Positions 6,093 to 37,401 of a stretch of DNA of 64,000 nt are shown here, piece after piece. The position numbers and the translations under genes are program-made. This stretch comes from Oscillospiraceae bacterium (GTDB lineage Bacteria > Bacillota > Clostridia > Oscillospirales > Oscillospiraceae): NCBI GenBank assembly GCA_036653035.1, contig JAVVUU010000001.1:3524-67523 (forward strand), in the 5' to 3' direction. The first letter of the stretch is position 1. Each line of letters begins with the position of its first letter. The notes beneath the pieces are model-generated. The model saw nothing but the letters and a program-made list of their open reading frames with translations, was not told the origin of the DNA and did not search any database.

Positions 6093-6176
6093 GGCATAAA
6101 ACAATATACCAAATCACATTATGTTGTATTTTTAACAAAATTATCGAACGTTTCGTAATATTTTCGTAACATTTAC

Positions 6177-6205
6177 TTTACACGACAAGAGCTTTGTGTT
6201 AGAAT
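6177..6205 (+). promoter_or_regulatory. predicted sigma-70-type promoter of oppA
   Basis: TTTACA, 17-nt spacer, TAGAAT, about 100 nt upstream of oppA. Confidence 0.5.
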
Positions 6206-6304
6206 TACTGCAATAGTTTTAAAATATTAAAGCTATGCTTAATAATTCTTTGTGTATCACGCCGAAAGGCGCTTACGATACAAAATTACTTTGGAGGTAA
6301 AATA

Positions 6305-8143
6305 ATGAACACGAAAAGACTTCTTGCTCTGCTCCTGTCCGTCATGATGCTTGTTGGCGTTATGGCCGGATGCGCCAAGAAACCTGCAGAATCACCCGCA
6401 CCCACTGCGGAAGGCTCTGCAAAGCCCGTTGCAAAAGATGGCCTCAACATGGCAGTTTGCCTTGCTTCCGAGCCTGAATCCATTGACCCCGCACTGAACC
6501 GTGCAGTTGATGGTGCCATGATGCTCAACCACTTCTTTGAGGGCCTCACCAAGTGGACCGATGATGGCAAAGGCAACGCAGTTCTTGCTCCGGGTCAAGC
6601 CGAAAGCAAGGAAAAAGTTGTCAATGACGACGGCACAGTTACTTACACTTTCAAAATGCGTAAGGACGCAAAGTGGAGCGACGGCGAGCCTGTAACAGCT
6701 AAAGACTTCGTTTACAGCTGGCAGCGCCTTGCAACTCCCGCAACCGCAGCCGCCTACAACTACATGATTGACATGGTTAAGGGCTATAAAGAAGTTGCAG
6801 TTGGCGAGCCTGTTCTAACAGCCGATGGCAAACAAGAATACGTCGATGGCGATGGCAAGCCCGTTGAAATCGCTCTTGACAAAGACGGCACCCCCATCGA
6901 CAAGGACGGCAAGCCTCTTGATGAGCTTCCCAAGGGCGTTAAGGAACACAGAACCTACGAGGACATCTCAAAGCTCGCAGTTTCTGCTCCCGACGACAGC
7001 ACCTTTGTTGTAACTCTTTCCAACGATTGCCCCTATTTCGAAGAAATTTGCGCATTCCCCGCAACCTTCCCCGTCCGCAAGGACATCATTGAGTCCGCCG
7101 GCGACCAGTGGACCTTTGACCCCGCAACCTATGTTTCAAACGGCGCTTACAAAATGAGCGAGTGGGTTCATAATGCCCATATCACCGGTGTTCAAAACGA
7201 CAACTACTATGACGTAAAGAACCTCGGACCCACCACCCTTACATTCCAGCTTATGGATGACGCACAGGCAATGTATTCCGCATTCAAGAGCGGCGACCTT
7301 CAGTTCACACTCGAAGTTCCCACCGACGAGATTTCAACACTTCTCGGCACCGGCGAGCTTAAAATCGTACCTTATGTAGGCACATATTATGTCTGCTTCC
7401 AGAACCAAAAGGCTCCGTTCGATAATCCCCTTGTCCGCGAGGCTTTCTCCCTTGTAATCGACCGCAACTACATTGTTGAAAAGGTTACACAGACAGGTCA
7501 GGTTCCTGCATCCGGCTTTGTTCCCAAGGGTGTTGAAGACCCCTCAGCAACCGAAGATTTCCGTACAGCCGGCGGCGACTATTATGATGTTACCCCCGAG
7601 CAGTACAAAGCAAACTGCGACAAGGCTCGCGAGCTTCTTGCACAGGCAGGATATCCCGAGGGCAAAGGCTTCCCCGCAGTTGAATACCTCTACAACACTC
7701 AGGAAGAGCATAAGGCCATTGGCGAAGCTCTCCAGCAGATGTGGCAGAAGGAGCTTGGTGTAGCAGTTTCCCTCAACAACCAAGACTGGGCAGTATTCCT
7801 CAAGACCCGTCAGGCAGGCGACTACCAAATCGCCCGTAACGGCTGGATTGCAGACTACAACGACCCCATCACCTTCCTTGATATGTGGCAGACCGGCAAC
7901 GGCAACAACGATGCTCAATATTCAGTTCCCGAATATGACGCAGCAATTGATGCCTGCAAGGCAACCGCAGATCCCGTTGAGCGCGCAAAGCAGCTCCACA
8001 TCGCCGAGGATAAGCTCATCGGTGAGGACAACGCTCTCGCACCCATCTATTTCTACACCCAAAAGTATATGCTTGATGACGCTATCAAGGGTATGTACTA
8101 CACCCCGCTTGGATATTTCTTCTTTGGTTATTGCACAAAGTAA
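6305..8143 (+). CDS. oppA: ABC transporter substrate-binding lipoprotein, family 5 (oligopeptide OppA-like)
   Basis: Signal peptide with lipobox (LVGVMAGC). 612 aa with OppA/DppA-type sequence throughout (e.g. KWSDGEPVTAKDFVYSWQR, YYVCFQNQKAPFDNPLVREAF, WIADYNDP). GGAGG RBS. Confidence 0.9.
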   Translation: MNTKRLLALLLSVMMLVGVMAGCAKKPAESPAPTAEGSAKPVAKDGLNMAVCLASEPESIDPALNRAVDGAMMLNHFFEGLTKWTDDGKGNAVLAPGQAESKEKVVNDDGTVTYTFKMRKDAKWSDGEPVTAKDFVYSWQRLATPATAAAYNYMIDMVKGYKEVAVGEPVLTADGKQEYVDGDGKPVEIALDKDGTPIDKDGKPLDELPKGVKEHRTYEDISKLAVSAPDDSTFVVTLSNDCPYFEEICAFPATFPVRKDIIESAGDQWTFDPATYVSNGAYKMSEWVHNAHITGVQNDNYYDVKNLGPTTLTFQLMDDAQAMYSAFKSGDLQFTLEVPTDEISTLLGTGELKIVPYVGTYYVCFQNQKAPFDNPLVREAFSLVIDRNYIVEKVTQTGQVPASGFVPKGVEDPSATEDFRTAGGDYYDVTPEQYKANCDKARELLAQAGYPEGKGFPAVEYLYNTQEEHKAIGEALQQMWQKELGVAVSLNNQDWAVFLKTRQAGDYQIARNGWIADYNDPITFLDMWQTGNGNNDAQYSVPEYDAAIDACKATADPVERAKQLHIAEDKLIGEDNALAPIYFYTQKYMLDDAIKGMYYTPLGYFFFGYCTK

Positions 8144-8176
8144 TCAAATTAAATTCCTAAATATTTCAATAAACAC

Positions 8177-8212
8177 AAAGAACCGTTCAATTTTGAACGG
8201 TTCTTTCTTTTG
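8177..8212 (+). terminator. intrinsic terminator after oppA
   Basis: aaagaaccgttcaa / ttgaacggttcttt stem followed by cttttg. Confidence 0.8.
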
Positions 8213-8501
8213 CATATAATCTCCACAGAACAAAGCAAAAACAGCCGAAAGTGATTGATACAACTGTGTTTTCGCTTTATTCAGCAGACATTATATAAAT
8301 GGTTAGAAATATTCATTTTTTTTGGTTGTATTTATGTATATATTTTCTTGTGTTATAGCGCTTTGTTTGGTATTATTGTACAAGGGAGTAGCTTTTTGAT
8401 GTGCTGTTCTTTAATTTGAAACTAAAATAATAAAACACCTGTCTATTATTGACAGTTATATAATAACGCGACTGACATTTAGCCGTGAGGGGGTAAAACC
8501 A

Positions 8502-11195
8502 TTGAACAAACGTGAAGCCGAGCTGCAAAAAGCTCAGGATGAACTGCTAATCAGTAAAAAGCGCTATGAAATAGCTTTGAGCATAATTTCGGATACAGTC
8601 TTTGATTATGTTGTCGATACAAAACAAATTATAAATTTCAAGGGAACTGCCGCAAAATATGGCTTACCCGATGCAATAGATGGTGGCCCGGAAGCAATTA
8701 TTGCCGCCGGAAACATCCATCCGAAAAGCATTGAGCGCTTTCGTGAGCTTTATAAGCGAATTGACGATGGTGATGAATTGTCCTCCGATGTCATTGTAAC
8801 AATTGACAAGGATGGCCGCGAGATAATAAATGAAATCATCATGCACAACATCTATGACAACAATCACAAGCCAACCCGCGCAATCGGAATTATGAAAAAT
8901 GTTACAAAGTCCCTCCAATTACAGCGTGAACGCGATTATGTCAGCTCGCTTTTGTCGGACAAGGTACTTAGCTATGAGGCAAATGTCACTGCCGATAAGG
9001 TCGTATATTATGATGGCGGATGGACGAACATTCTAAGTGAAAAATCCTTATCTTCGCTTACATCAATGCTTACAAGTATCGCTGATATTGCTGTCGCACC
9101 GGAGCACAGGGAGCTGTTTTTGGAAAAAACATCCAGGCAACTACTCCTAACGGCCAACGACAATGGCGAAAACATGATTACCTTCGAATTTCTGATAGTC
9201 GGTACAAATGGCCCGGAGTGGATAAGAACTGCAATTCACATAATTCAAGACGAATTGACCGGAGAAGTTTTTGCACGTTCATACATGAAAAAAGTGAATA
9301 AGCATGCAACAAAACCTCGATTTTCACCGGAGGAGCAATACTATCTCGACACAATGTCTGCCAAAGCCGAATTTGTTTACGAAACAAATGTAACTCAAAA
9401 CTATTTCATCAGCGGCCATGAGAACTGTAACAGACTTTACTCTATAGAGCAAAACAATGATTACACGAAAATACTTTTGCTATTTACCGAAAAGGCGCTG
9501 CACCCGGCAGATAGAGCCAAGTTTCTTGAAGTTACACTTCGCGAAAATCTAATTGCCGCATACAAAAACGACAACACCGATTTTATGTGCGATTATCGCA
9601 AGCTCAATGACGATGGCGATTTCATCTGGTGTCGTTCCACCATACATCTCTACGAAAATGAAGATAACTCGGATGTTTACGGAATTTGCTGTGTCGAAAA
9701 TATTGACGCCGAGAAAAAACTGCAGCTTGAGCTAATTTATAAAGCCGAACACGATTTGTTGACGGGTATGTATAACAAAATAACCGTTGAGGAGGTTATA
9801 ACAGATTTTCTTTCAACAAGTGACGCTAAAGCAAACGGACACGCATTTTTAATTCTCGACATCGACTATTTTAAATCCGTAAACGACACCTTTGGTCACG
9901 CTTTTGGGGACACCTACCTTTCTCAGACCGCAACAAAAATAAAATCGCTGTTTCGCGACGATGATACTTTCGGCAGAATTGGCGGAGATGAATTTGTCGT
10001 ATTTATGAAAAACGTAAAAAGCGAACACCGAATTCAGTCAAAAGCCGAGGAGCTTTGCAAAATTCTATCCGAAACCTACACCGTCAATGGAGCACAGCAA
10101 ACCTTTTCCGTCAGCATAGGCATTGCCTTATATCCGGCACACGGAAAAACCTATGACGCACTCTACCGCAACTCCGATGCTGCTCTTTACTATGCAAAGG
10201 AGCACGGCCGCGACCAATACGCCATGTTCACACCAAACATGGAGCTTTGCGCCACCGCTGTAAAAGCGATTGACAACGTCCGATTGCCGCACACAAAAAT
10301 ATTTGAAGAAAGCATATGCGAATATGTATTTCGCATTCTATATGAAGCTACTGACAAAAGCTCCTCAATCAATACAGTGCTTGAGCTTATTGGAAAGCAC
10401 TATGCGGCAAGCCGCGTATACATTTTTGAAGATTATGATGACGGCCGCTACTCCCGCAACACGTTTGAGTGGTGCGCGCAGGGGGTACCGCCCGAAATCG
10501 AAAACCTCCAAAGCGTGTCATATGAAGAATTGGGAACATATAAGGAGCTTTATAATTCCGATGGCTATTTTTATTTGAACGATATAGATGAATCCGACCA
10601 AAGCTATAAGGACATTTTGAAACCGCAGGGTGTTAAGAGCTTGCTTCATTTTTCAGTTGAAAAAAACGGTGTATTCGTTGGCTTTATCGGATTTGACCAA
10701 TGTGACCGCATCCGTGTACCCACGCCAAACGAACTTAGCGAATGTCGAAATATGGCAAATGTTCTGGGAATTTTCATTACTGAAATGCGCGCAATTGAAG
10801 TTGCCGTGGCTGCAAGGCTTGAAACGGAGGCGTCCAAGCAAAGAGTAATGGCAATTGTTAACGCTCTCGGCTCCTATGCCTATGTATGCGACCCTGAAAC
10901 CTATGAAGTCCTGTTTATCAACAAACAGCTTAACATACTTGCCCCAAACGCAAAGAACAACTGCATATGCTACGAAGCCTTTTGGGCAAACACCGAGCCT
11001 TGTAAGGGTTGCCCAATAAATGCGCTGCGTGAGCAGAAATCCGGAAAATACACTACCGAAATGTACAACCACAATCTCAAGCGCTGGGTGAAGGTTACAA
11101 CCTCATGGATTGACTGGCTGGATAACAAAAAAACTTGCCTTGTTGAAAGTGTTGATATTACAAAGTACATCACAGGAACTTCAACTTCATATTAA
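8502..11195 (+). CDS. PAS-repeat / GGDEF diguanylate cyclase / GAF-like / C-terminal Cys-motif PAS-like protein (897 aa)
   Basis: TTG start 8 nt after GAGGGGG. Cyclase core: ILDIDYFKSVNDTFGHAFGD ... RDDD-x5-GGDEF. The C-terminal segment carries CxC-x10-CxxC. Confidence 0.88.
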   Translation: MNKREAELQKAQDELLISKKRYEIALSIISDTVFDYVVDTKQIINFKGTAAKYGLPDAIDGGPEAIIAAGNIHPKSIERFRELYKRIDDGDELSSDVIVTIDKDGREIINEIIMHNIYDNNHKPTRAIGIMKNVTKSLQLQRERDYVSSLLSDKVLSYEANVTADKVVYYDGGWTNILSEKSLSSLTSMLTSIADIAVAPEHRELFLEKTSRQLLLTANDNGENMITFEFLIVGTNGPEWIRTAIHIIQDELTGEVFARSYMKKVNKHATKPRFSPEEQYYLDTMSAKAEFVYETNVTQNYFISGHENCNRLYSIEQNNDYTKILLLFTEKALHPADRAKFLEVTLRENLIAAYKNDNTDFMCDYRKLNDDGDFIWCRSTIHLYENEDNSDVYGICCVENIDAEKKLQLELIYKAEHDLLTGMYNKITVEEVITDFLSTSDAKANGHAFLILDIDYFKSVNDTFGHAFGDTYLSQTATKIKSLFRDDDTFGRIGGDEFVVFMKNVKSEHRIQSKAEELCKILSETYTVNGAQQTFSVSIGIALYPAHGKTYDALYRNSDAALYYAKEHGRDQYAMFTPNMELCATAVKAIDNVRLPHTKIFEESICEYVFRILYEATDKSSSINTVLELIGKHYAASRVYIFEDYDDGRYSRNTFEWCAQGVPPEIENLQSVSYEELGTYKELYNSDGYFYLNDIDESDQSYKDILKPQGVKSLLHFSVEKNGVFVGFIGFDQCDRIRVPTPNELSECRNMANVLGIFITEMRAIEVAVAARLETEASKQRVMAIVNALGSYAYVCDPETYEVLFINKQLNILAPNAKNNCICYEAFWANTEPCKGCPINALREQKSGKYTTEMYNHNLKRWVKVTTSWIDWLDNKKTCLVESVDITKYITGTSTSY

Positions 11196-11276: not shown

Positions 11277-13484
11277 GTGAAAAGCTTATCAAAAAAGCCC
11301 TTGTTTGTTATTGTTTCCATTGTATCTTTCTTGTTGGTTTTTACTTCCCTTATAGTATACAGGCATTGCTTGGGCAACAGGCTTACGCTCTCAAATCACA
11401 CCACACTAAATGAGTTTTTGGATGAGCAGCGCTTTAGCTTTGAACAGCGGCTTCAAGAGCAATCTAACACCATAAAAGCTTGCACAGGCTTTTTCTTGCA
11501 CTCACACTATACCGATGAGGAAGTAATACAGACATTAAACAAAATGAAATCCAGTGCTTTGTTTGATTATGTTGGCGTTGTTTCAGCGACGGAAGGCAAA
11601 GGCTTTGATAATACAGGGCAAGAGATTGACATTTCGAATAGTGAGTTTTTTGAAACGGCATTAAAGGGAAATACTGTCGTATCTGACCCGTCAAAGTCTA
11701 AATTTGATGACAGCATCAGTGTCATTTTTGCGACACCTATTTACGAAAACAATGCTGTTGCCGCGGTTTTACTGGGAGTCTACGATGTTTCTAATTTCAC
11801 GGAGCTGCTTCGCCCGGCGTTCGGCGGAAAAGGATATGTCTATGTCACAACTTCAACAGGCGAAATTTTCCTTTCAACCGAGGGAGCAGGAACAAATAAT
11901 GGCAACATCTTCGACAAACTGGCTCCTCTTGAGTATTTGGACAAGGGCAACTATTCCGATATAAAAGCCAACATTGACTCAAACAGCCCCGGGAGTGCTC
12001 ATTACATATATAATGGTGAACGTCGATTTATGCACTACTCCCAACTGGAAAGCAAAAATTGGCTGATTTTTGTGATTGTTCCGGAGAGCATTATCTCGGA
12101 ACAGGCAAACATGATTATGAACGGCACCGGTATACTAATACTTGGCATATTATTCGTCTTTGTTTTAATAATGATTTTATTCTTCAGAGAGCAAAAGCTC
12201 CACATTCAGGATCTTTCAACCCTTGCATATAAGGATGAGCTTACGGGTGCAATTAACAAAAGAAAATTTTACGAGCTGGCCGAAAAAGCCATTGACTCGA
12301 AAACTCGATATGTGCTTCTTGTTTTGGATATAGAAAAATTCAAGGTTTTAAATGACACCTTGGGCTATGAATACGGCGACAGACTATTAATCTCCATGGC
12401 AACTATTATGGAGCAGCATACAGGCAAAAACGAGCTTTTCGGAAAAGGCGAGTCCGACCATTTTTATCTGCTTTTCGAATACACCGATGAACAGCACATA
12501 ACTCAACGCATAGACACAATTATTGCCGAAATCCAAAATGATTTTCGTGCAAATATAAGCAGCAATTACAACCTCAGTGTATGTGCCGGCGCTTATGTAA
12601 TAACAAATTCAAATGAATCTATGAGCATTATGTGCGACAGAGCAAAGCATGCTCAACAGAACATTAAAGGCATTCAATCAAGCAGTACTGCCTTTTTCAG
12701 CGAGGAAATTTTCGAACAGATTGTTAAAGAAAAAGACATTGAAAACCGAATGCAGTCAGCCTTGGATAACGAAGAATTTATGCTCTATCTTCAGCCTAAG
12801 TTCAGATTGTGCGATGAAATAATATTGGGTGCCGAGGCTTTGGTGCGTTGGAAAACTGCAAGTGGCGTAATTATGCCACCCAACGACTTTATCCCAATAT
12901 TCGAAAAAAATGGATTTGTTACAAAGCTTGATATGTATATGCTTGAAAAGTCCTGTGCTTTCATCAGACAGCAATTTGACATGGGCATAACGCCCGTTCC
13001 CATCTCAATAAATTTCTCAAGACTTCACTTGAAAAACCCGCATTTTGTTGAGGATATTGCTAGGATTGTAAGCAAATATAATGTTTCGCCCCGGCTTATT
13101 GAAATTGAGCTTACGGAAAGCACAATCCATGACAACGAAATTACGATGATAGACCTTTTGGAAAGTCTGCACAAGAGAGGCTTTGCACTTTCAATGGATG
13201 ATTTTGGAAGCGGATACTCGTCCTTGGGTCTATTAAAAAATCTCTCCGTGGACACCGTTAAGCTGGATCGCACCTTCTTCACTGAATATACCGACTTTGA
13301 CAGAGCAAAAACTGTTATCTCAAATATGATTACAATGACAAGGGAGCTAAACATCAATACAGTAGCCGAGGGAGTTGAAACAAAGGAGAACATTGACCTC
13401 CTCCGTGAATTGGGCTGTGATATCGTGCAGGGATTTTATTTTGCAAGGCCAATGGAAGCGCTTGAGATAAATAAAATATTATAA
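11277..13484 (+). CDS. membrane-anchored Cache-type sensor / degenerate GGDEF / EAL c-di-GMP phosphodiesterase (735 aa)
   Basis: N-terminal TM helix, a ~260-aa extracytoplasmic region, then a second TM helix (ILILGILFVFVLIMILFF). The GGDEF position reads GESDH. EAL domain is complete: EALVRW, INFS, ELTES, SMDDFGSGYSS, KLD, AEGVE, VQGFYF. Confidence 0.88.
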   Translation: MKSLSKKPLFVIVSIVSFLLVFTSLIVYRHCLGNRLTLSNHTTLNEFLDEQRFSFEQRLQEQSNTIKACTGFFLHSHYTDEEVIQTLNKMKSSALFDYVGVVSATEGKGFDNTGQEIDISNSEFFETALKGNTVVSDPSKSKFDDSISVIFATPIYENNAVAAVLLGVYDVSNFTELLRPAFGGKGYVYVTTSTGEIFLSTEGAGTNNGNIFDKLAPLEYLDKGNYSDIKANIDSNSPGSAHYIYNGERRFMHYSQLESKNWLIFVIVPESIISEQANMIMNGTGILILGILFVFVLIMILFFREQKLHIQDLSTLAYKDELTGAINKRKFYELAEKAIDSKTRYVLLVLDIEKFKVLNDTLGYEYGDRLLISMATIMEQHTGKNELFGKGESDHFYLLFEYTDEQHITQRIDTIIAEIQNDFRANISSNYNLSVCAGAYVITNSNESMSIMCDRAKHAQQNIKGIQSSSTAFFSEEIFEQIVKEKDIENRMQSALDNEEFMLYLQPKFRLCDEIILGAEALVRWKTASGVIMPPNDFIPIFEKNGFVTKLDMYMLEKSCAFIRQQFDMGITPVPISINFSRLHLKNPHFVEDIARIVSKYNVSPRLIEIELTESTIHDNEITMIDLLESLHKRGFALSMDDFGSGYSSLGLLKNLSVDTVKLDRTFFTEYTDFDRAKTVISNMITMTRELNINTVAEGVETKENIDLLRELGCDIVQGFYFARPMEALEINKIL

Positions 13485-14945: not shown

Positions 14946-15551
14946 CTAAAGCTTTTCAATCAAGGTTGCAGATACCTCAAAAGCGGTTTTTTTAATTTCC
15001 TCACCGTCATTGCTTTTTATGTATTTGCGGCTTTGAATTCTTCCGTCAAGCTCAAGGCTGTCGCCAACCTCCCATAGTGCCGCCTCATGCGCGTTCTGCC
15101 CCCAGCAAATGCAAGGCAGATAATCCGAGTGGCCATAGGGGCGATTAACGGCTATCAGCAGGTCGCAAATTTCCCTGCCAAGCGGTGTAGCCCTCAAATT
15201 TGGGCGCTTGCAGAGTGTACCACAGAGCCACACGTTGTTCTGCGGCTCCTCGTTACAAAATTCAAGTGTGTGTGCATACACAAATATAACAAGCTTATTG
15301 CCGACTCCGCTCTTATTATTATAAGAGCGGAGTTCGCCCGTTATTTTGAGCATTTCACTGTTATCCGGCTCAATTTCCGACAATAATTCCTCTGTGCACA
15401 CAATATTGAGCACATCATCAATACCGGAGAGACGTACAACTTTTAATGGAAAAGTATAAAATCTTTTATTGTGGTTAGTGTGCGAATATTCCGGTCTGCC
15501 ATCAAGAGTTCCGCAAAGCGTTACAGAGCTTTCTACCCTTCGTTCTTCCAT
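14946..15551 (-). CDS. tandem OB-fold, SSB-family-like protein (no acidic C-terminal tail)
   Basis: Two internally similar halves (VTLCGTLDGRPEYSH...LKITGELRSY and VWLCGTLCKRPNLRA...LELDGRIQSRKY). Start taken at the ATG at 15551, 5 nt after GGAGG; the tracked TTG at 15563 lies within the RBS. Confidence 0.55.
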   Translation of the reverse strand: MEERRVESSVTLCGTLDGRPEYSHTNHNKRFYTFPLKVVRLSGIDDVLNIVCTEELLSEIEPDNSEMLKITGELRSYNNKSGVGNKLVIFVYAHTLEFCNEEPQNNVWLCGTLCKRPNLRATPLGREICDLLIAVNRPYGHSDYLPCICWGQNAHEAALWEVGDSLELDGRIQSRKYIKSNDGEEIKKTAFEVSATLIEKL

Positions 15552-15851
15552 AAGTACCTCCAAATTTCTTCACCTAACATATTATTACGGCGTCTCCCTA
15601 CCAAAAACGAGGCGGATTGCCTGTCCAAACGCACTGCGATTTAAGCTCGCATCAAAGGCGGCAGGGATTTGTGATAACACAGCTTATTCGGCCAAGGCTC
15701 TGCATATTACCAATTTGTTCAAATGCGGCGCACATATGTCCGTTTCACACCGACATCACTTTAATGCAATAAATTCGGGCAAAAATTTAGCTAATTTATA
15801 GGGGAAAACCGAAAAAATAAATATTGGAAGGGTCAAATTTGCATGAACGCC

Positions 15852-20497: not shown

Positions 20498-20526
20498 TTG
20501 ACATGACGGCGGCTGTATGTTAGAAT
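20498..20526 (+). promoter_or_regulatory. predicted sigma-70-type promoter of the pyr operon
   Basis: TTGACA, 17-nt spacer, TAGAAT (near-consensus), about 55 nt upstream of pyrC. Confidence 0.65.
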
Positions 20527-20579: not shown

Positions 20580-21845
20580 GTGAATTACTTAATCCGCAAC
20601 GCAAGTGTATTTTTTGATAGTGGCTTTACTATTTCCGATATTTTTGTTAAAGACGGCATCATTACCGATATTAAGCCGTTTTTATCTCCAATTTCAGACG
20701 CTGTTATTATTGAATTGAATAATTGTTTCATTTTTCCGGGTCTCATTGATGTTCATGTACATCTTAGGGAACCGGGATTTTTTTGTAAAGAAACAATTTC
20801 AAGCGGCACTCTTGCCGCGGCGCACGGCGGTTTTACAACGGTTTGCGCCATGCCAAACCTTTCGCCCACGCCCGACAGTGCAGAGCACCTAAAGGCGGAA
20901 ACCGACATAATTGAGCGCGATGCCCATGTTCATGTCCGACCATACGGCAGTATTACCAAGGGTCAAAAGCAGTGCGAGCTTTCGGATATGGACGAGCTTG
21001 CGGAAGCTGTTGTTGCTTTCACGGATGACGGCGTAGGGGTTCGGAACGGGCAAATGATGGAAGCGGCAATGCGAAAAGCAAAAAGCCTTGGGAAAATTAT
21101 AGTTGCCCATTGCGAGGACGAAACACTTCTAAACGGCAGCTATGTCCATGACGGTGACTATGCAAGAGCGCACGGCCATACCGGAAACCCCTCCGAAAGC
21201 GAGTGGCGGCAGGTTGAAAGGGATATTGCTCTGGTTCGAAAAACCGGCTGCGACTACCACGTTTGCCATGTGTCCACCAAGGAGAGCGTTGCGCTTGTCC
21301 GCGCGGCAAAGGCCGAGGGGCTGCCAATTAGCTGCGAAACCGCTCCGCACTACCTCTGCTTGCAGGACACCGACCTGAAAGACGAGGGGCGTTTCCGCAT
21401 GAACCCGCCAATCCGAGGTGCGGAGGACAGAAAAGCACTGATTGAGGGCATTTGCGATGGCACAATTGAAATCATTGCAACCGACCATGCCCCGCACACC
21501 AAGGAGGAAAAGTCCGGTGGCCTGCGAAACAGCTTAAACGGTGTTGTAGGGCTTGAAACCGCTTTCCCAATGCTTTACACTAAGCTTGTTAAAACAAATA
21601 TCATCACTATGGAGCAGCTTATTCGGCTTATGCAGGTAAATCCCGCGCGGCGCTTTGGGATTGGCAGCAGCCTTAAAATAGGTCAGCCGGCAGATTTAAC
21701 TGCCTTTGATTTGAACACGGAATATACGATTGAGTCCAATGAATTTTTGTCAATGGGACGCGCCACCCCCTTTGAGGGCGAGCGAGTTTTTGGAAAATGT
21801 AAGCTTACAATGGTAGGAGGAGAAATAATATGGACAGAAAAATAG
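20580..21845 (+). CDS. pyrC: dihydroorotase
   Basis: GLIDVHVHLREPG (HxH), VAHCED, HVCHVST and ATDHAPH. Start is ambiguous: GTG 20580 lies 9 nt after GGGAGG and gives MNYLIRNASVF, while the tracked ATG 20541 has no RBS. Confidence 0.93.
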   Translation: MNYLIRNASVFFDSGFTISDIFVKDGIITDIKPFLSPISDAVIIELNNCFIFPGLIDVHVHLREPGFFCKETISSGTLAAAHGGFTTVCAMPNLSPTPDSAEHLKAETDIIERDAHVHVRPYGSITKGQKQCELSDMDELAEAVVAFTDDGVGVRNGQMMEAAMRKAKSLGKIIVAHCEDETLLNGSYVHDGDYARAHGHTGNPSESEWRQVERDIALVRKTGCDYHVCHVSTKESVALVRAAKAEGLPISCETAPHYLCLQDTDLKDEGRFRMNPPIRGAEDRKALIEGICDGTIEIIATDHAPHTKEEKSGGLRNSLNGVVGLETAFPMLYTKLVKTNIITMEQLIRLMQVNPARRFGIGSSLKIGQPADLTAFDLNTEYTIESNEFLSMGRATPFEGERVFGKCKLTMVGGEIIWTEK

Positions 21846-22915
21846 TGCTGGAGGACGGCACAGAATATTACGGCGACGGCTTCGGCTACAAATGCGACAG
21901 GGTCTGCGAGCTTGTGTTCAACACCTCAATGGTGGGTTATCAGGAGATAGTTTCCGACCCATCCTATACATACCAAATGGTGGTGATGAGCTATCCGCTA
22001 ATCGGAAACTATGGCATAGCGGATGATGATTTTGAATCCAAAATCCCCACAATAGGCGGACTTATAGTTCGTGAATACAACGACTCTCCCTCAAATTTTC
22101 GCTACACAAAAACACTTTCGGAAATCATGGAGGAAAACCGCATCCCCGGAATTTCCGGTCTTGATACTCGAAAATTGACCCGCGCCATCCGCAGCGGCGG
22201 CGTTTGCAAGGTGCTTATGACTAACGCGGACACTCCAAAGGCCGAGGCGCTTGAAATTCTTGCGGGTGCAAACATTCCCAATAATGCAGTGGAAAAGGTA
22301 AGCTGCCGCAAGCGTTGGTATTCGCGAACCTCAAACCACAGCTTCAATCTTGCCTGCATCGACTGCGGAATTCGCCAAAGCATTATAAAATACCTCAACC
22401 AGCGCGGCTGCAACCTTACAATTCTTCCATATAATGTCACAGCGGAGGAAATTGAAGCACTTAACCCCGATGGCATTTACATATCCGGCGGCCCGGGAAA
22501 TCCCGAAGCAGTTTTGGCAATTGCCGAGGTTATAAATAAGCTCCGCACAAAATATCCGATTTGCGGCGATGGTCTTGGTTTCCAGCTAATCTGCCTTGCC
22601 TACGGCGCAAAAACACGCAAGCTCAAATGCGGACATTACGGCTCAAACCATCCTGTGCGCAGCTTGCTTACGGGAAAGCTTGACACAAAGGGTCAAAGTC
22701 AGGGTTATGAGGTTGAGAAAGCTTCGCTTTCCGAAACACGGCTCACGCTCACACATATGGATACGATTGACGACACCGTTCAGGGCGTTGAGTGTACGGA
22801 GGACAAGGTTTTCGGAGTACAATTTTATCCGCTTGGCACCTCTGACCCCGACAAGGGCGGCTCACTGTTTGACAGATTTTTTGCAAGTATAAGCGAGGTG
22901 AAGGACAATGCCTAA
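21830..22915 (+). CDS. carA: carbamoyl-phosphate synthase small subunit homologue with degenerate glutaminase active site
   Basis: The N-terminal half is typical of CarA ([36 protein letters not shown]), and GGPGNPE is retained. The catalytic motifs read GDGLGFQ, SQSQGY and VQFYPL instead of GICLGHQ, SQNHG and VQ(Y/G)HPE. The gene overlaps pyrC by 16 nt and carB by 8 nt. Confidence 0.9.
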
Positions 22916-25900
22916 AAGAACAGATATTAAAAAAATACTCGTCATCGGCTCCGGCCCCATCGTTATAGGACAGGCGGCGGAATTTGACTACGCGGGCACA
23001 CAGGCCTGCATTGCATTAAAAGAGGAGGGCTACGAGGTAGTACTTGTAAACTCCAACCCCGCAACAATTATGACGGACGTAACCATGGCGGACAAGGTTT
23101 ACATGGAGCCTCTGACCCTCGAATATGTGGCAAAAATCTGCCGATTTGAGCGCCCGGACGCTATTGTTCCCGGAATAGGCGGGCAAACAGGTCTAAACCT
23201 TGCGATGCAGCTTGAGAAAAAGGGCATTTTGAACGAATGCCGCGTTGAACTTTTGGGAACCTCCGGCAAAAGCATTGAGCAGGCGGAGGACAGGGAGCTC
23301 TTCAAGCAGCTCTGCGAAAATCTTGGCGAGCCGGTTTTGCCCTCCGCAATCGCGCACAGCATTGAGGACGCAATCGCGGCGGCAAATGAAATCGGCTACC
23401 CCATTGTTCTGCGCCCCGCTTTCACCCTTGGCGGCACAGGCGGCGGCTTTGCGGATGATGAAACAGAGCTTTGCGAGATTATGAAAAACGCACTTTCCCT
23501 CTCGCCCGTGCATCAGGTGCTTGTTGAAAAGAGCATTAAGGGCTACAAGGAAATTGAATATGAAGTAATCCGTGACGGCAACGACACCGCAATAACGGTT
23601 TGCAACATGGAAAACATTGACCCCGTTGGCATACATACGGGTGACTCAATAGTTGTTGCGCCCTGCCAAACTCTGACGAGTAAGGAAAACCAAATTTTGC
23701 GCAACAGCGCACTTAAAATTATACGCGCGCTCGAAATTGAGGGCGGCTGCAATGTGCAGTTTGCACTCGACCCTCAATCGCTTTCTTACTTCCTAATCGA
23801 AGTAAATCCGCGCGTTTCACGCTCCTCCGCATTGGCTTCAAAGGCGAGCGGCTACCCAATCGCCCGCGTTTCCGCAAAAATTGCGGTTGGCATGACGCTT
23901 GACGAAATTTTCACGGCGGGCACACCCGCAAGCTATGAGCCTTCACTGGACTATGTGGTTACAAAAATGCCGCGCTTCCCCTTTGACAAATTTGCAAGCG
24001 CCTCAAACAAGCTTGGTACACAGATGAAGGCAACAGGCGAGGTTATGAGCATTGGCAGAACGCTTGAGGAAAGCCTGCTAAAGGCAATACGCTCCCTCGA
24101 AATCGGCGTTTGCCACCTCTATATGAAAAAGTTCGATACCTATTCAAAGGCAGAGCTTTTAAGCTACATAAAGGACGGCACGGACGACAGACTGTTTGCC
24201 ATAGCACAGCTTATGCGGCTCTCCGTTGACCTCGGCGTAATCTGCACAGTAACGCAGATTGATATGCTCTTTATTGAAAAAATGCGCAACATAGTTGAAT
24301 TTGAAACCGTCCTAAAGGACAATAGGGGAGAGGTTTCCGTTCTTCGCAAGGCAAAACGCATGGGCTTTGCCGATGAATACATAGCAAAGCTTTGGGAAAT
24401 GCCTGTGGACAAGGTCTATGACACGCGCAAAGCAAACGGACTTTTCCCCGTTTACAAAATGATTGACACCTGCGGCGGCGAGCTTGACAGGCTTGTGCCC
24501 TGCTACTATTCCACCTATGAGGACGAAAACGAATCAATAATCAGCGACAAAAAGAAGATAATAGTTTTGGGCAGCGGCCCCATCCGCATAGGTCAGGGCG
24601 TTGAATTTGACTATTCCACCGTCCACGCCGTTACAACCATCAAGCGCCGCGGCTATGAAGCCATCATAATCAACAACAACCCCGAAACTGTTTCAACAGA
24701 CTACACAACAAGTGACAAGCTCTATTTTGAACCGCTGACAGTTGAGGACGTTATGAATGTCGTCCACCTTGAAAATCCGCTTGGCGTAATTGCCTCCCTT
24801 GGCGGACAAACGGCGATAAATCTTGCCGCTCCTCTCATGCGCTGCGGGGTTCGCATTATCGGCACGGATGTTGCCGCCATTGAACGCGCCGAAAATCGTG
24901 ACAGCTTTGAAAAAATTATGGAACAGCTCAAAATTCCACAGCCTAACGGCACAGCAGTTACAAATATTACGGACGGTCTTGCGGCTGCAAAGCGCATTGG
25001 CTACCCCGTTCTTGTGCGTCCGAGCTATGTTTTGGGCGGCAGGGCAATGCAAATTGTAAACAGTGACGACACCTTAAAAACTTACCTCCAAACAGCAGTT
25101 GAAATCGACGAGGATCAGCCGGTTTTGGTGGACAAATACATACCCGGCAAAGAGGTTGAGGTCGATGCCGTGTGCGATGGCGAAAACGTCTTTGTGCCCG
25201 GAATTATGGAGCACGTTGAACGCACCGGAATTCACTCCGGCGACAGCATCAGCGTTTACCCGAGCTTCTCAATTTCACAAAAGGTTAAGGACACAATTAT
25301 TGACTACACCCGCCGTTTGGGGCTTGGAATAGGCATAATAGGGCTTTACAATATTCAGTTCATTGTGGACAAAAATGAGGATGTTTATGTAATTGAGGTT
25401 AACCCGCGCTCATCCCGCACGGTTCCGTTTTTGAGCAAGGCAACAGGCTATTCGCTTGCCGACATTGCAACTCTTGTAATTCTCGGTGAAAGCCTGCGCG
25501 AACAGGGCTTTAATGAAATTTATCCGCCCGAAAAGAAAAAATGGTACGTTAAGGTGCCCGCGTTTTCTTTCTCAAAGCTTCGTGGAATGGACGTTTACCT
25601 CTCGCCGGAAATGAAGTCCACGGGCGAGGCCATTGGCTATGACGAGCGCCTAACACGCGCACTTTACAAGGCCTTGCAGTCCTCCGGCATGAAGGTTTAC
25701 AATTACGGCACAATTTTTGTCAGCATTGCGGACAAGGACAAGGCCGAAGCGCTCCCCCTAATCCACAGATTTTACAATCTCGGCTTCAACATTGAAGCGA
25801 CAAGCGGCACTGCCGCCTACCTAAAGGAGCACGGCATACGCACCCGAGTACGCGCCAAAATCAGCGAGGGCAGCGACGAAATTTTAACCTCTCTGCGCCG

Positions 25901-26087
25901 CGGCTATGTAAGCTACGTTATCAGCACCCGCGACATAAATTCCTTTGACGAAATGAGTGACGGCAACCAAATTCGCCGCTGTGCCGTTGAAAACAACGTG
26001 AATATGTTCACCTCTCTTGACACCGTCAAGGTTCTTCTCGATGTTTTGGAGGAAACAACCCTCTGCATTTCAACCATAGACAGCTAA
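22908..26087 (+). CDS. carB: carbamoyl-phosphate synthase large subunit
   Basis: 1059 aa with two ATP-grasp halves, each opening with GSGPI(V/R)IGQ..EFDY, plus an MGS-like C-terminal domain. Confidence 0.97.
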
Positions 26088-26119: not shown

Positions 26120-26854
26120 ATGAAAAAAGATACTTTCACAATTGAAAGCAATATTGCGCTCACAAAGGATGTTTTTAAAATGACTCTGCGCGGAGATACA
26201 AGTGAAATTTCCGCACCGGGACAGTTTGTAAATCTGGAGCTTGAAGGGCTTTATCTTCGCCGCCCCATATCCGTATGCGACCTTGAAAACGACCTTTTAA
26301 CACTGATTTACAAGGTTGTCGGCAAGGGAACGGCACAAATGAGCCGCCTTTGCCCCAACGCAGCGCTTGACCTCCTCACAGGCTTGGGCAACGGCTACGA
26401 CACCGCAAAAAGCGGGAGCACTCCCGTGCTCGTCGGCGGGGGAGTCGGCGTTCCGCCGCTCTATCTGCTCTGCAAGCGGTTGCTTGCGGAGGGAGCGCAC
26501 CCAATCGCGGTTCTCGGCTTTAACACGGCCTCCGAGGTTTTTTTTGAAAACGAATTTCGCGCACTTAATGTTCCCGTACACATTTCCACAGCGGATGGAA
26601 CGGCGGGAGTTCGCGGCTTTGTAACCGATGCAATGCGCAAGCTTGACAGCTTCGACTACATTTTTTCCTGCGGCCCCGAGCCTATGCTAAAGGCAGTTTA
26701 CGGTGCTTTTGAAACGGACGGTCAGTTCAGCTTTGAGGAGCGGATGGGTTGCGGCTTTGGTGCCTGCATGGGCTGCTCCTGCAAGACAAAATATGGCAAC
26801 AAACGCATTTGCAAGGATGGCCCTGTGCTGGAAAGGGGCGAAATAATATGGTAA
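26120..26854 (+). CDS. pyrK: dihydroorotate dehydrogenase B electron-transfer (FAD/2Fe-2S) subunit
   Basis: RRPISV FAD motif and the C-terminal cluster motif CGFGACMGCSC...ICKDGPV. Confidence 0.93.
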   Translation: MKKDTFTIESNIALTKDVFKMTLRGDTSEISAPGQFVNLELEGLYLRRPISVCDLENDLLTLIYKVVGKGTAQMSRLCPNAALDLLTGLGNGYDTAKSGSTPVLVGGGVGVPPLYLLCKRLLAEGAHPIAVLGFNTASEVFFENEFRALNVPVHISTADGTAGVRGFVTDAMRKLDSFDYIFSCGPEPMLKAVYGAFETDGQFSFEERMGCGFGACMGCSCKTKYGNKRICKDGPVLERGEIIW

Positions 26855-27759
26855 ACACAAAGATTAAGCTGTCCGGTTTAACGCTCGATAACCCCATAAT
26901 CCCCGCAAGCGGCACCTTTGGCTTCGGTGCGGAATTTGCGGAGCTTTACGACATCAACATTCTTGGCAGCTTGTCATTCAAGGGTACAACGGTGGAGGAG
27001 CGCTTTGGAAACCCCACACCGCGCATAGCCGAGTGTGAGGGCGGAATGATAAATTCCGTTGGTCTGCAAAATCCCGGACTGCAAGCCGTTATTGAGCGCG
27101 AGCTTCCAAGGCTTGCGCAGGTATACAAAAAACCCGTAATCGCAAATATAAGCGGCTTTTCATTGGCCGAATATGTTGAATGTGCTATTGCGATGGACAA
27201 GCAGGAGCAGGTTGGCATAATTGAAGTCAATGTAAGCTGCCCGAATGTTCACGGCGGCGGCATGAGCTTTGGCGTTTTGCCGGAAGCCGCGGCGGAGGTA
27301 ACCCGCGCTGTGAAAGCCGTCACATCAAAGCCCGTTTATATCAAGCTCAGCCCAAATGTGACCGACATCGCGGAAATTGCCCGCGCCTGTGAAAATGCGG
27401 GAGCGGACGGAATTTCCCTAATCAACACGCTTCTTGCCATGCGGATAGACCTCAAAACCCGCCGCCCAATTCTTGCAAACAAAATGGGCGGACTTTCGGG
27501 AAACGCAATTTTCCCCATAGCACTGCGTATGGTTTATCAGGTTTATGAGGCTGTCAAAATTCCCATAATCGGCATGGGGGGAGTTTCATGCGCCGAGGAT
27601 GTCATTGAAATGCTGCTCGCGGGAGCAACAGCGGTTCAAATAGGCGCGGCAAATCTTAAAAATCCATTTGCCTGCAAGGAAATTATTGAAGCTCTGCCAC
27701 AGGCCATGGAAAAATACGGAATAGACGATTTATCAAAAATAATAGGGGAGGCGCACTGA
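26848..27759 (+). CDS. pyrD: dihydroorotate dehydrogenase B catalytic subunit
   Basis: Start taken at ATG 26848 (MVNTKIKLSG), within an ATGGTAA overlap with the pyrK stop; the tracked 26749 start is an extension. ASGTFGFG, NSVGLQNPG, EVNVSCPNV. Confidence 0.95.
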   Translation: MVNTKIKLSGLTLDNPIIPASGTFGFGAEFAELYDINILGSLSFKGTTVEERFGNPTPRIAECEGGMINSVGLQNPGLQAVIERELPRLAQVYKKPVIANISGFSLAEYVECAIAMDKQEQVGIIEVNVSCPNVHGGGMSFGVLPEAAAEVTRAVKAVTSKPVYIKLSPNVTDIAEIARACENAGADGISLINTLLAMRIDLKTRRPILANKMGGLSGNAIFPIALRMVYQVYEAVKIPIIGMGGVSCAEDVIEMLLAGATAVQIGAANLKNPFACKEIIEALPQAMEKYGIDDLSKIIGEAH

Positions 27760-28457
27760 TGGCAAAGGATGTAATCATAGCCTGCGACTTTAACAGCAAG
27801 GCGGAGGTCTTGGGGTTTTTGGACAAATTCACCGACCAAAAGCCCTTTGTGAAAATTGGAATGGAGCTTTTCTATGCGGAAGGCCCCGATATAGTTCGCG
27901 AAATCAAGGCACGGGGACACAAAATTTTTCTTGACCTAAAGCTTCACGATATTCCAAACACGGTTAAAAAATCCATGGCGGTTTTGTCCTCGCTCAATGT
28001 GGATATGTGCAATGTCCACGCGGCGGGAACATCCGCAATGATGAGCGCCGCTTTGGAGGGATTGACCCGTTCGGACGGAACCCGTCCGCTGCTCATTGCC
28101 GTGACACAGCTTACCTCCACCGATGAGGAGCGTATGCAAAAGGAACTGCTCATTTCAAGTCCGCTCGACGAAACCGTTCTGCACTACGCCGAGAACACCA
28201 AGCTTGCGGGGCTTGACGGCGTTGTCTGTTCCCCCTTGGAGGCAAAAAAGGTTAAAAACCGCTGTGGGGAGGCTTTCCTAACGATCACCCCCGGAATTCG
28301 CTTTGCGGAGGGCAGTGCAGATGATCAGATTAGAATTACAACTCCCGCCAAGGCGCGCGAGCTTTTAAGCGACTACATTGTTGTCGGCAGGCCGATTACC
28401 CAAAGCAGCGACCCTGTTTCGGCATACAAACGCGCACTTGCCGAGTTTTTAGGATAA
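27759..28457 (+). CDS. pyrF: orotidine 5'-phosphate decarboxylase
   Basis: IIACDF, FLDLKLHDIPNTV and VVGRPIT. Its ATG overlaps the pyrD stop (TGATG). Confidence 0.95.
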   Translation: MAKDVIIACDFNSKAEVLGFLDKFTDQKPFVKIGMELFYAEGPDIVREIKARGHKIFLDLKLHDIPNTVKKSMAVLSSLNVDMCNVHAAGTSAMMSAALEGLTRSDGTRPLLIAVTQLTSTDEERMQKELLISSPLDETVLHYAENTKLAGLDGVVCSPLEAKKVKNRCGEAFLTITPGIRFAEGSADDQIRITTPAKARELLSDYIVVGRPITQSSDPVSAYKRALAEFLG

Positions 28458-28504: not shown

Positions 28505-29149
28505 ATGACAGATAAAATAATTGCAAAACATCTGCTCTCCATTGGCGCGGTCATAATAAGACCGGAGGAGCCATTTACATGGGCGAGCGGAATTAAGAGT
28601 CCCGTATATTGCGACAACCGCTTAACGCTAACCGCCCCCGCTGTACGGACTGACATTGAAAACGCACTTGCAAACACGGTTCGCGAAAAGTTTCCCAGCT
28701 GTGAGGTGCTTATGGGCACGAGCACAGCGGGCATTGCCCACGCCGCGATTACGGGGCACATCATGGGTCTGCCCATGGGCTATGTTCGTTCCGGCGCAAA
28801 GGATCACGGCCGTCAAAACCAAATTGAGGGCAAGCTTGAGCGCGGCAGCAAGGTTGTTGTTGTGGAGGATTTAATTTCAACGGGCGGAAGCGTAATTGAG
28901 GTTGTTGAGGTTCTTCGCAATGCGGGCGCGGAGGTTTTGGGTGTTGTCAGCATCTTCACCTACAACATGAAAAAAGGTCTTGAACGTCTGAAAGCCGCAG
29001 ACGTTACAAATTACAGCTTGACAAATCTTGACGTAATAGCAAAGGTAGCGGCCGATGAGGGCGTTATTGCGGAAAGTGACATTCAGCGTGTTTTGAATTT
29101 CCGCGACAATCCCTCGGATGAAAGCTGGATAAACGGAGGTGCAAAATGA
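28505..29149 (+). CDS. pyrE: orotate phosphoribosyltransferase
   Basis: [12 protein letters not shown] and the PRPP motif [13 protein letters not shown]. Confidence 0.95.
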
Positions 29150-30057
29150 AAGACTTAATCAGCATCACAGACCTTAGCACCGACGAGCTGCAAGAGCTTG
29201 TCAACACAGCGCTGGACATTATCGACAACCCCGATAAATACTGCGAAAAGTGCAAGCGAAAAAAACTCGCAACACTCTTTTTCGAGCCTTCAACCCGCAC
29301 TCGCCTGAGCTTTGAGGCGGCAATGCTGGAGCTTGGCGGAAGCGTTTTGGGATTTTCCGAAGCGACAAGCTCCTCTGCCGCAAAGGGCGAAAGCGTTGCG
29401 GACACGGCCCGCACAATAAGCTGCTATGCGGACATCATTGCAATGCGTCACCCCAAGGAGGGCGCACCGCTGGTTGCCGCCCGTGCCGCAACAATCCCCG
29501 TTATCAATGCCGGTGACGGCGGCCACAACCACCCCACCCAAACACTTACAGACCTGCTCACAATTTTCCGTGAAAAGGGCAGATTTTCAAACCTCAAAAT
29601 CGGATTTTGCGGCGACTTGAAATTCGGACGCACAGTTCATTCGCTAATTCAGGCGATGTCACGCTATGACAACAACAGCTTTGTTCTCATCTCTCCCGAC
29701 GAGCTTCGTCTGCCAAGCTACATAAAGAGCGATATTTTGGAAAAGAACGGACTTTCCTATGTTGAAACAAACAATTGGGACGATATGCCCGAGCTTGACA
29801 TACTCTACATGACCCGCGTTCAGCGCGAGCGCTTTTTCAACGAAGCGGACTACCTCCGTCTGCGCGACGTTTTCATTCTTACAACCGACAAGCTGACAAA
29901 CGCGAAAGAGGATTTGTGCATCATGCACCCGCTGCCGCGTGTCAACGAAATCGAACGCGCTGTGGATGACGACAAGCGTGCCTGCTACTTTAAGCAGGTT
30001 CTAAATGGCAAGTTTATTCGCATGGCACTCATTTTAAAGCTTTTGGAGGGCTGCTGA
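29146..30057 (+). CDS. pyrB: aspartate carbamoyltransferase catalytic subunit
   Basis: [17 protein letters not shown] and MHPLPR. Overlaps the pyrE stop by 4 nt. Confidence 0.96.
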
Positions 30058-30058
30058 T

Positions 30059-30478
30059 ATGACAATAGACTCAATAAAAAACGGCATAGTGCTTGACCAC
30101 ATTCAGGCGGGGAAAAGCATGGAAATCTACCACATATTGGAGCTTTCAAAGCTCGATTGCGCGGTTGCCATCATCAAAAACGCCGCAGGAAAAGCAGGTG
30201 TTCGCAAGGACATAATCAAAATTGACTCCGTTATTGACATTAACCTTGACGTTTTGGGCTACATTGACCCCGGTATCACCGTCAACATCGTTAAAGACGG
30301 AAAAATTGTTGAAAAGAGCCATCTTGCACTCCCCGAGCGCGTTACGGGCGTAATAAAGTGCAAAAACCCACGTTGCATCACCTCAACAGAGCAGGAGCTT
30401 CCGCACGTTTTCCAGCTTGTGGACAGGGACACGGGGCTTTACCGCTGTGTATATTGCGAAACCAAAGCCGAAAGATAA
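30059..30478 (+). CDS. pyrI: aspartate carbamoyltransferase regulatory subunit
   Basis: GIVLDHI N-terminus and the zinc domain CKNPRC...YRCVYCE. Confidence 0.93.
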   Translation: MTIDSIKNGIVLDHIQAGKSMEIYHILELSKLDCAVAIIKNAAGKAGVRKDIIKIDSVIDINLDVLGYIDPGITVNIVKDGKIVEKSHLALPERVTGVIKCKNPRCITSTEQELPHVFQLVDRDTGLYRCVYCETKAER

Positions 30479-37073: not shown

Positions 37074-37390
37074 TTTCTCTTGCGCTCACACTGGCGCTGG
37101 AGCTGCTGTTTTGCTTTTTTGCAAAAATACGCGGTTTACACAACTACATACTAATAGTCCTCGTGAACATACTAACAAACCCGCCGGTTGTGCTAACGCA
37201 CAATCTTTTAAGGCGCTACACCGGTATTTCTCCAATCGTCATCGTTATAGTCCTTGAAGCGCTTGTAATATTCGGTGAAGCCGTGTGCTACAAATACTGC
37301 TCAAAAGACATAAAGCGTCCACTTTTGCTCTCCCTTTGTGCAAATGCGTTTTCATACTTAACCGGTCTGTTATTGATACATTTAATTTAG
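37043..37390 (+). CDS. small hydrophobic membrane protein, unknown function
   Basis: 115 aa with 3-4 predicted helices. It overlaps the upstream gene by 31 nt. I recognise no family. Confidence 0.45.
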   Translation: MQFDLVGTLLISLALTLALELLFCFFAKIRGLHNYILIVLVNILTNPPVVLTHNLLRRYTGISPIVIVIVLEALVIFGEAVCYKYCSKDIKRPLLLSLCANAFSYLTGLLLIHLI

Positions 37391-37401
37391 GAGGAACTGT
37401 T

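Follow-up and report, generated by a model that had tools for sequence, protein, structure and literature searches.

A triad-less CarA maintained in the pyr operon of an Oscillospiraceae bacterium: a probable ammonia-dependent bacterial carbamoyl-phosphate synthase with a pseudo-glutaminase subunit

Carbamoyl-phosphate synthases (CPSs) differ in their nitrogen source, and reviews assign the ammonia-specific enzyme, CPS I, to ureotelic animals, whereas bacterial CarAB is regarded as a glutamine-dependent CPS II (PMC6022934). In Escherichia coli CarA, Gly293 is a residue of the ammonia tunnel; human CPS1 has Gln318 at this position, which blocks the ancestral tunnel, and external ammonia enters by a path around the dead glutaminase site (PMC4655335). 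In CarB, C232/A251/A314 constitute the ammonia gate (PMC4655335; PMC8674909), and according to Rubino 1987, as cited in PMC3017870, E. coli CarB needs no CarA to produce carbamoyl phosphate from NH3 in vivo. Here we analyse a 64,000-nucleotide stretch of DNA from an Oscillospiraceae bacterium (assembly GCA_036653035.1, contig JAVVUU010000001.1, positions 3,524 to 67,523; referred to as the window), in which the carA gene of a pyr operon encodes a CPS small subunit that lacks the catalytic triad. We suggest that this CarA and its CarB partner probably form an ammonia-dependent bacterial CPS with a maintained pseudo-glutaminase subunit, i.e. a heterodimeric analogue of CPS I.

The open reading frame (ORF) at 21830-22915 comprises 361 codons with neither stop nor frameshift and is unambiguously a full-length CarA/PyrAA. 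It contains the CPSase_sm_chain domain and a class-I glutamine amidotransferase (GATase) fold (Table 1) and scores 356.5 bits against TIGR01368 (cut-off 307) and 364 bits against PRK12838 (cut-off 221). In a phmmer search against solved structures the protein aligned end to end with E. coli CarA (1c30_B, 1bxr_B; E 1e-70), and the residue columns taken from this alignment were rechecked in multiple alignments with 120-190 relatives. At the columns of the Cys269-His353-Glu355 triad we find Gly248, Tyr333 and Leu335. A first-pass annotation of the window had claimed that all three catalytic positions are substituted, and the changes C269G, H353Y and E355L, together with H272F, bear this out at exactly the nucleotide positions it gave; likewise, neither the alignment to the E. 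coli structures nor that to the relatives, a check proposed there, places a Cys/His/Glu triad at the canonical columns. The change it had described in the SQNHG motif is correct in that Asn311 and His312 are lost and in its coordinates, but the segment given as SQSQG in fact reads G288-Q-S-Q-G292, with 22694-22705 covering QSQG.

An AF2 model of the protein, computed from an 18-sequence alignment, is of moderate confidence (pLDDT 73; means of the GATase blocks ~59-95, most of them 70-95). Gly248 lies between a strand and a helix in this model, as in a nucleophile elbow, and Foldseek matches it best to E. coli CarA (E 1e-35), followed by human CPS1. Cys245, located three residues before the elbow, was considered as an alternative nucleophile and dropped; since canonical relatives (P0003, P0004) carry this Cys as well, it is not compensatory. 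The best explanation of these residues is that the window CarA would no longer be able to hydrolyse glutamine.

The losses are unevenly distributed over the protein. Family-invariant sites were defined as those conserved to at least 97% in 168 relatives that keep Cys269. The window CarA keeps 69 of the 70 such sites in the N-terminal domain, i.e. the CarB-docking half is conserved, as had been noted before, as compared with 57 of 88 in the GATase domain, and 24 CarAs without the Cys keep on average 0.94 of the N-terminal and 0.76 of the GATase sites. Conservation is lost at C269, H353, E355, I268, G293, T308, S309, P358, G359, P360, D362 and S363 as well as Tyr48, which is located beside Ser47. 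On the basis of the Holden/Raushel papers we take A309, N311 and P358 to line the small-subunit tunnel, and the G359F substitution is reported to block it (Huang & Raushel, 2000). PDB entry 1m6v is the structure of this G359F small-subunit mutant. Positions G293, A/S309, N311, P358 and G359 are at least 97% conserved in the 168 Cys-containing CarAs, as against 17-33% in the 24 CarAs without Cys, and are occupied by S272, G288, S290, S338 and D339 in the window protein, a tunnel role beyond G293 being in part our assumption. So the glutamine site and the positions known or presumed to line its ammonia path have lost constraint, whereas the surface that holds CarB has not.

The triad-less state is not an assembly artefact, because an identical protein is encoded in four metagenome-assembled genomes (MAGs) at NCBI and in two independent Logan run assemblies; this also rules out sequencing errors, which might have invalidated the original observation. 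NCBI lists the same CarA for about twelve MAGs that carry the label Oscillospiraceae bacterium. Among strains, six nucleotides of carA vary, and all six differences are synonymous (P about 1e-4 at a synonymous-site fraction of 0.226), a pattern in line with 14 neighbouring genes of the same strains, which total 158 synonymous and 24 nonsynonymous differences. Within the 90% cluster of this CarA the only amino-acid variants are G336S, T337A and R263S. The closest other species (L007-L009, 70% identity) shares with the window both the opp-pyrC-carA-carB-pyrKDFEBI synteny and the Gly/Phe/Tyr/Leu states; thus, the loss predates the split of the two species. In comparison with this species dN/dS is 0.125 for the whole carA gene, 0.143 for pyrC and 0.152 for pyrK, and the GATase domains are 67% identical with saturated dS. 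In other triad-less pairs ω of the GATase domain ranges from 0.036 to 0.106, and in canonical pairs with dS > 0.3 from 0.009 to 0.076, one barely diverged canonical pair (dS 0.08) giving 0.143. With an ORF that is intact in all strains and ω values of 0.04-0.13, far from the frameshifts, stops or ω near 1 of a pseudogene, the best explanation is a folded, selectively maintained small subunit. The idea of a maintained pseudo-glutaminase rather than a decaying pseudogene, put forward from the sequence at the outset, is therefore supported by the exclusively silent polymorphisms, a dN/dS of 0.04-0.11 in triad-less GATase domains and substitutions that are kept in a syntenic relative of 70% identity.

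Loss of the triad is not confined to this species. Gly occupies the Cys269 column in 18 of the 120 closest 90%-identity clusters, and a profile of those sequences yielded 41 clusters without a full triad out of 160; 37 of them have lost the Cys, always to Gly, and the other four keep it and have Gln in place of His353. These four (P0024, P0127, P0134 and P0138, with Glu355 additionally replaced by Asp in P0134 and P0138) may represent intermediate or differently inactivated states. Among 80 species representatives of GTDB six have Gly and one has Ser at the nucleophile, the isolate names pointing to herbivore, bird and human gut samples. In a 50%-identity library ~55 of the best 150 representatives lack the Cys, nearly all having Gly instead, a fraction that is biased upward because the representatives were ordered by how similar they are to a dead query. 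A single clade-wide loss was considered, as most Gly variants group together in a neighbour-joining (NJ) tree of CarA, which may be due to long-branch attraction; it was dropped, since the NJ tree of CarB splits the triad-less lineages into three or more groups that are set apart by canonical lineages. Thus, the survey of relatives recommended earlier reveals a loss that is recurrent and widespread among uncultured Clostridia of the gut and also affects a Mollicutes-like genus. Named members are Oscillospiraceae bacteria and Candidatus Pelethenecus faecipullorum (Mollicutes incertae sedis), whose protein is indexed in 141 collection blocks and whose dead carA is part of a pyrB-pyrC-carA-carB-pyrK-pyrD-pyrF-pyrE operon; other triad-less lineages have carAB as a stand-alone pair.

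Wherever the contig is long enough carA and carB are adjacent, and the overlap arrangement is the same in the related loci examined in detail. As the order pyrC-carA-carB-pyrK-pyrD-pyrF-pyrE is common to dead lineages and their canonical sister lineages, the dead carA is an orthologue and not a divergent paralogue. Two observations on annotation and gene neighbourhood may be added. NCBI/UniRef names several triad-less CarAs "glutamine-hydrolyzing" (the P0002 cluster, i.e. L007-L009, as well as P0058, P0069 and P0368 / UniRef100_A0A9D1KIL1), a label that is contradicted by their residues. At locus L091 a type III glutamine synthetase gene (5714-7813) is located directly upstream of a dead carA (8001-9098)-carB pair.

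With 1476 bits, CarB of the window is a clear match to PRK05294; it has kept its catalytic sites and, of 633 sites conserved in relatives, 617. The products of pyrK, pyrD, pyrF, pyrE, pyrB and pyrI match their Pfam families. The first-pass annotation had seen the catalytic motifs of carB and the other pyr enzymes as kept. For a comparison of partners we set 53 CarBs with a Cys-keeping CarA against 10 with a CarA without Cys. The gate C232/A251/A314 is invariant, as are I18, I20, Q22, A23 and R265, whereas 24 sites discriminate the two groups, 15 of them in residues 250-266, 320-345 and 525-545 (hypergeometric P 2e-12, a value that is only indicative as these ranges were picked post hoc). Asn258 is invariant in the 53 CarBs with a canonical partner, but Ser or Ala in 9 of the 10 with a dead partner, these nine coming from four or more lineages, and a fifth lineage has Tyr; beside a dead CarA Ser253 is replaced by Cys or Ala, and Tyr261 by Asn, Phe, Cys or Ser. 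Besides the window, the loci concerned by these changes in segment 253-266 are L035, L045, L055, L076, L079, L089, L090 and L092, and the same positions differ in the independent Mollicutes-like lineage. That Asn258 is replaced across several independent lineages suggests co-evolution in parallel and not drift. Contacts of the small subunit with CarB are confined to the carboxyphosphate and oligomerisation domains, and R265 is reported by Kim & Raushel (2004) to be part of the tunnel wall together with P360/H361 of the small subunit. The changed CarB sites would thus be located at the subunit junction, which may be simply relaxed or may be remodelled for the entry of free ammonia.

How might such an enzyme work? 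We propose that free cytoplasmic NH3 would be taken up by the complex of triad-less CarA and CarB and would get to the carboxyphosphate site without passing through the dead glutaminase site, CarA being retained as a structural or allosteric partner of CarB. C269G/S small-subunit mutants of E. coli CPS were reportedly described by Rubino et al. in 1986, and tunnel-blocked mutants are said to have lost the use of glutamine and kept that of ammonia (Huang & Raushel, in 2000). Because Gly is near-universal at the elbow and purifying selection is strong, the CarA fold itself seems to be needed, likely for stability of CarB, assembly or allostery, or as part of an alternative ammonia path. Several points weigh against this proposal. 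The dependence on NH3 is deduced from residue loss and from the precedents of E. coli and CPS1, and the support for the fold from the AF2 model is only moderate. The ranges in which the CarB changes cluster were chosen after seeing the data, and their placement at the junction draws on the structure papers on the E. coli enzyme. Moreover, E. coli CarB works without CarA. Finally, the genome outside the window may encode another, canonical CarA or CarAB, a carbamate kinase or a separate glutaminase.

This last point underlies the strongest rival explanation, according to which a second canonical carA/carAB, e.g. one serving the arginine pathway, as known from Bacillus and Lactobacillus, is located elsewhere in the genome and the pyr enzyme is a specialised or partly redundant ammonia isozyme. 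Some Firmicutes do have two CPS isozymes, the window covers only 64 kb of the genome, and the species is outside the scanned GTDB representatives (best match 69% identity). Nevertheless, we regard this explanation as unlikely. Judged by its position, the dead carA is orthologous to the carA of the pyr operon in canonical sisters, and in other triad-less lineages carAB stands alone, as expected for a sole general-purpose CPS. No second carA was found in the window or in the 92 related loci, each of which has one carA, and no assembly among the 80 species representatives has two loci. As the CarB sites near the CarA junction are relaxed, a canonical CarA would probably not serve the window CarB. 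The same dead state is found in the Mollicutes-like gut lineage, whose genome is expected to be small. If another CPS were encoded elsewhere, this would alter the view of the physiology, i.e. whether glutamine-dependent synthesis has been given up, but not the conclusion on this enzyme.

It is highly improbable that the triad-less CarA still feeds nitrogen to CarB, be it via a non-canonical nucleophile or via a separate glutaminase or ammonia-generating protein that docks to it. The window protein does retain G241, G243, L270 and Q273, Asp247 adjoins the elbow, and some other lineages have lost only the Cys. However, with His353 and Glu355 both gone no general base is left, Cys245 is shared with canonical relatives, and the tunnel positions G293, S309, N311, P358 and G359 are substituted and unconstrained. 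Furthermore, no glutaminase or GATase gene was found in the operon, in the 64-kb window or within 6-10 kb of carA in the 92 related loci. Supply of ammonia by another protein, which had been offered as one of two options when the gene was first described, is therefore the less likely of them. Just as improbable is a decaying pseudogene, or a frame kept open only for translational coupling to carB with a functionless product: although carB has its ribosome-binding site and start within the 3' end of carA, and E. coli CarB is active without CarA according to the citation of Rubino 1987 in PMC3017870, the constraint concerns the amino acids and not only the frame. None of the six strain polymorphisms is nonsynonymous, several triad-less lineages have ω of 0.04-0.11 in the GATase domain, and of the 70 invariant sites in the N-terminal domain all but one are retained. 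Moreover, the nucleophile has become Gly in almost all lineages, as would fit an elbow whose geometry is preserved.

If the proposal of an ammonia-dependent CPS holds, its scope may be wider. It is quite possible, although we would not call it probable, that a large, undescribed class of obligately ammonia-dependent bacterial CPS has arisen many times in host-gut anaerobes, i.e. in Oscillospiraceae, other Clostridia and a Mollicutes-like genus, with CarA as a conserved pseudo-glutaminase and with CarB changed in parallel at the presumed junction (N258 to S/A/Y, S253 to C, and Y261), which might create a new NH3 entry port. A literature search found no description of a natural triad-less bacterial CarA. 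In bacteria, such a class would parallel the evolutionary step that led from CPS II to CPS I, and it would provide natural experiments on the retention of a dead amidotransferase subunit and on an external ammonia route to CarB. It would also imply that anaerobes of gut and rumen can manage nitrogen without going through glutamine, and would affect metabolic models, since "glutamine-hydrolysing" annotations are inherited for such proteins.

The features of the locus are summarised in Table 1. Re-derived from the ORF coordinates, the overlap of carA is 16 nt with pyrC and 8 nt with carB, in agreement with the earlier view that the gene is in its normal place and coupled on both sides. The ammonia-dependent AsnA that had been noted in the same window is indeed encoded there (57142-58152; PF03590, 334 bits). 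Rfam searches at gathering thresholds gave no match in the whole 64-kb window (1-64000), including no PyrR-type leader upstream of the pyr operon.

Table 1. Coordinates of the pyr operon and of the CarA and CarB segments discussed in the text (positions in the window).
Feature	Position	Strand	Remarks
Promoter-like site	20498-20526	+	TTGACA, 17 nt, TG-n-TAGAAT; 11/12 matches; just upstream of pyrC; consensus match only
pyrC (dihydroorotase)	20580-21845	+	Frame open from 20541; MAG annotations start at the equivalent of 20580
carA (CPS small subunit, 361 aa)	21830-22915	+	Intact ORF, without catalytic triad
CPSase_sm_chain domain, CarA residues 5-128	21842-22213	+	PF00988, E 8e-47
Class-I GATase fold, CarA residues 176-351	22355-22882	+	PF00117, E 1e-32
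Former nucleophile elbow G-D-G-L-G-F-Q	22565-22585	+	D247 for Ile268, G248 (22571-22573) for Cys269, F251 for His272
S272 at E. coli Gly293 position	22643-22645	+	From alignment
S290-Q291 at Asn311-His312 (glutamine site and tunnel)	22697-22702	+	From alignment
Y333-P-L335 at His353-Pro-Glu355	22826-22834	+	Y333, 22826-22828; L335, 22832-22834
S338-D339 at Pro358-Gly359	22841-22846	+	From alignment
carB (large subunit, 1059 aa)	22908-26087	+	Intact ORF
CarB segment C253...S258...N261...N266	23664-23705	+	S, N, Y, D invariant beside Cys-CarA; changed beside dead CarA
pyrK	26120-26854	+	Pfam family match
pyrD	26848-27759	+	Pfam family match
pyrF	27759-28457	+	Pfam family match
pyrE	28505-29149	+	Pfam family match
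pyrB	29146-30057	+	Pfam family match
pyrI	30059-30478	+	Pfam family match

Some observations concern other parts of the window. Two genes have a high nonsynonymous share of strain differences: pyrC (20580-21845; 10 synonymous, 7 nonsynonymous), far above the other genes compared, and, likewise, a dCache-GGDEF-EAL gene (11277-13484; 13 synonymous, 7 nonsynonymous). The latter encodes one of three large cyclic-di-GMP signalling proteins, the others being REC-EAL-PAS-GGDEF (2739-6092) and PAS-GGDEF (8502-11195) proteins, and the trio clusters around the gene for a family-5 solute-binding protein (6305-8143), upstream of the opp permease genes. An SSB-family protein (14946-15563, minus strand; 201 aa in MAG annotations) matches Pfam only in residues 109-199 and has an unmatched N-terminal extension of ~100 residues. 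At E up to 1e-5 no Pfam family matches the ORFs at 37285-38232 (plus strand, 315 aa) and 55630-56439 (minus strand, 269 aa).

Compared with the bacterial CarA/PyrAA of CPS II (E. coli, PDB 1jdb/1c30) the window protein has the same two domains and the same fold, with 36-37% identity over the full length, and it occupies the same place immediately upstream of carB, with translational coupling and as positional orthologue of carA in sister lineages. However, it lacks Cys269, His353, Glu355, Asn311/His312 and the tunnel residues Gly293, Pro358 and Gly359, and because triad, Asn311/His312 and tunnel residues are gone it is not a canonical glutamine-hydrolysing subunit.

A further comparison is that with human CPS1 (PDB 5dot/5dou). 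In both enzymes a dead glutaminase module is kept and its nucleophile is replaced (C269G here, Ser294 in CPS1), the Gly293 position is substituted (Ser here, Gln318 in CPS1), the equivalents of the inner gate C232/A251/A314 are conserved, and external ammonia is the presumed substrate of the bacterial complex as well. The substitution of Gly293 (PMC4655335 for human CPS1) strengthens the analogy to CPS I that had been drawn from the triad alone. Nevertheless, there are clear differences: CPS1 is one fused polypeptide of ~1500 residues, whereas the window has two ORFs (361 and 1059 aa) in a pyrimidine operon; CPS1 has Ser at the nucleophile and keeps His and Glu, whereas the window CarA has lost all three triad residues; CPS1 needs N-acetylglutamate, whereas the bacterial complex may not; and the bacterial loss is independent in origin and recurrent. 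Finally, E. coli laboratory mutants (C269S, PDB 1c30; G359F, PDB 1m6v; CarB alone) have lost the use of glutamine and kept NH3-dependent synthesis, and the natural changes described here affect the same positions, i.e. Cys269 is replaced by Gly and Gly359 is substituted. Yet, unlike these engineered single changes, the state found in the window is natural, multi-site, ancient and selected, and it is accompanied by changes in CarB.

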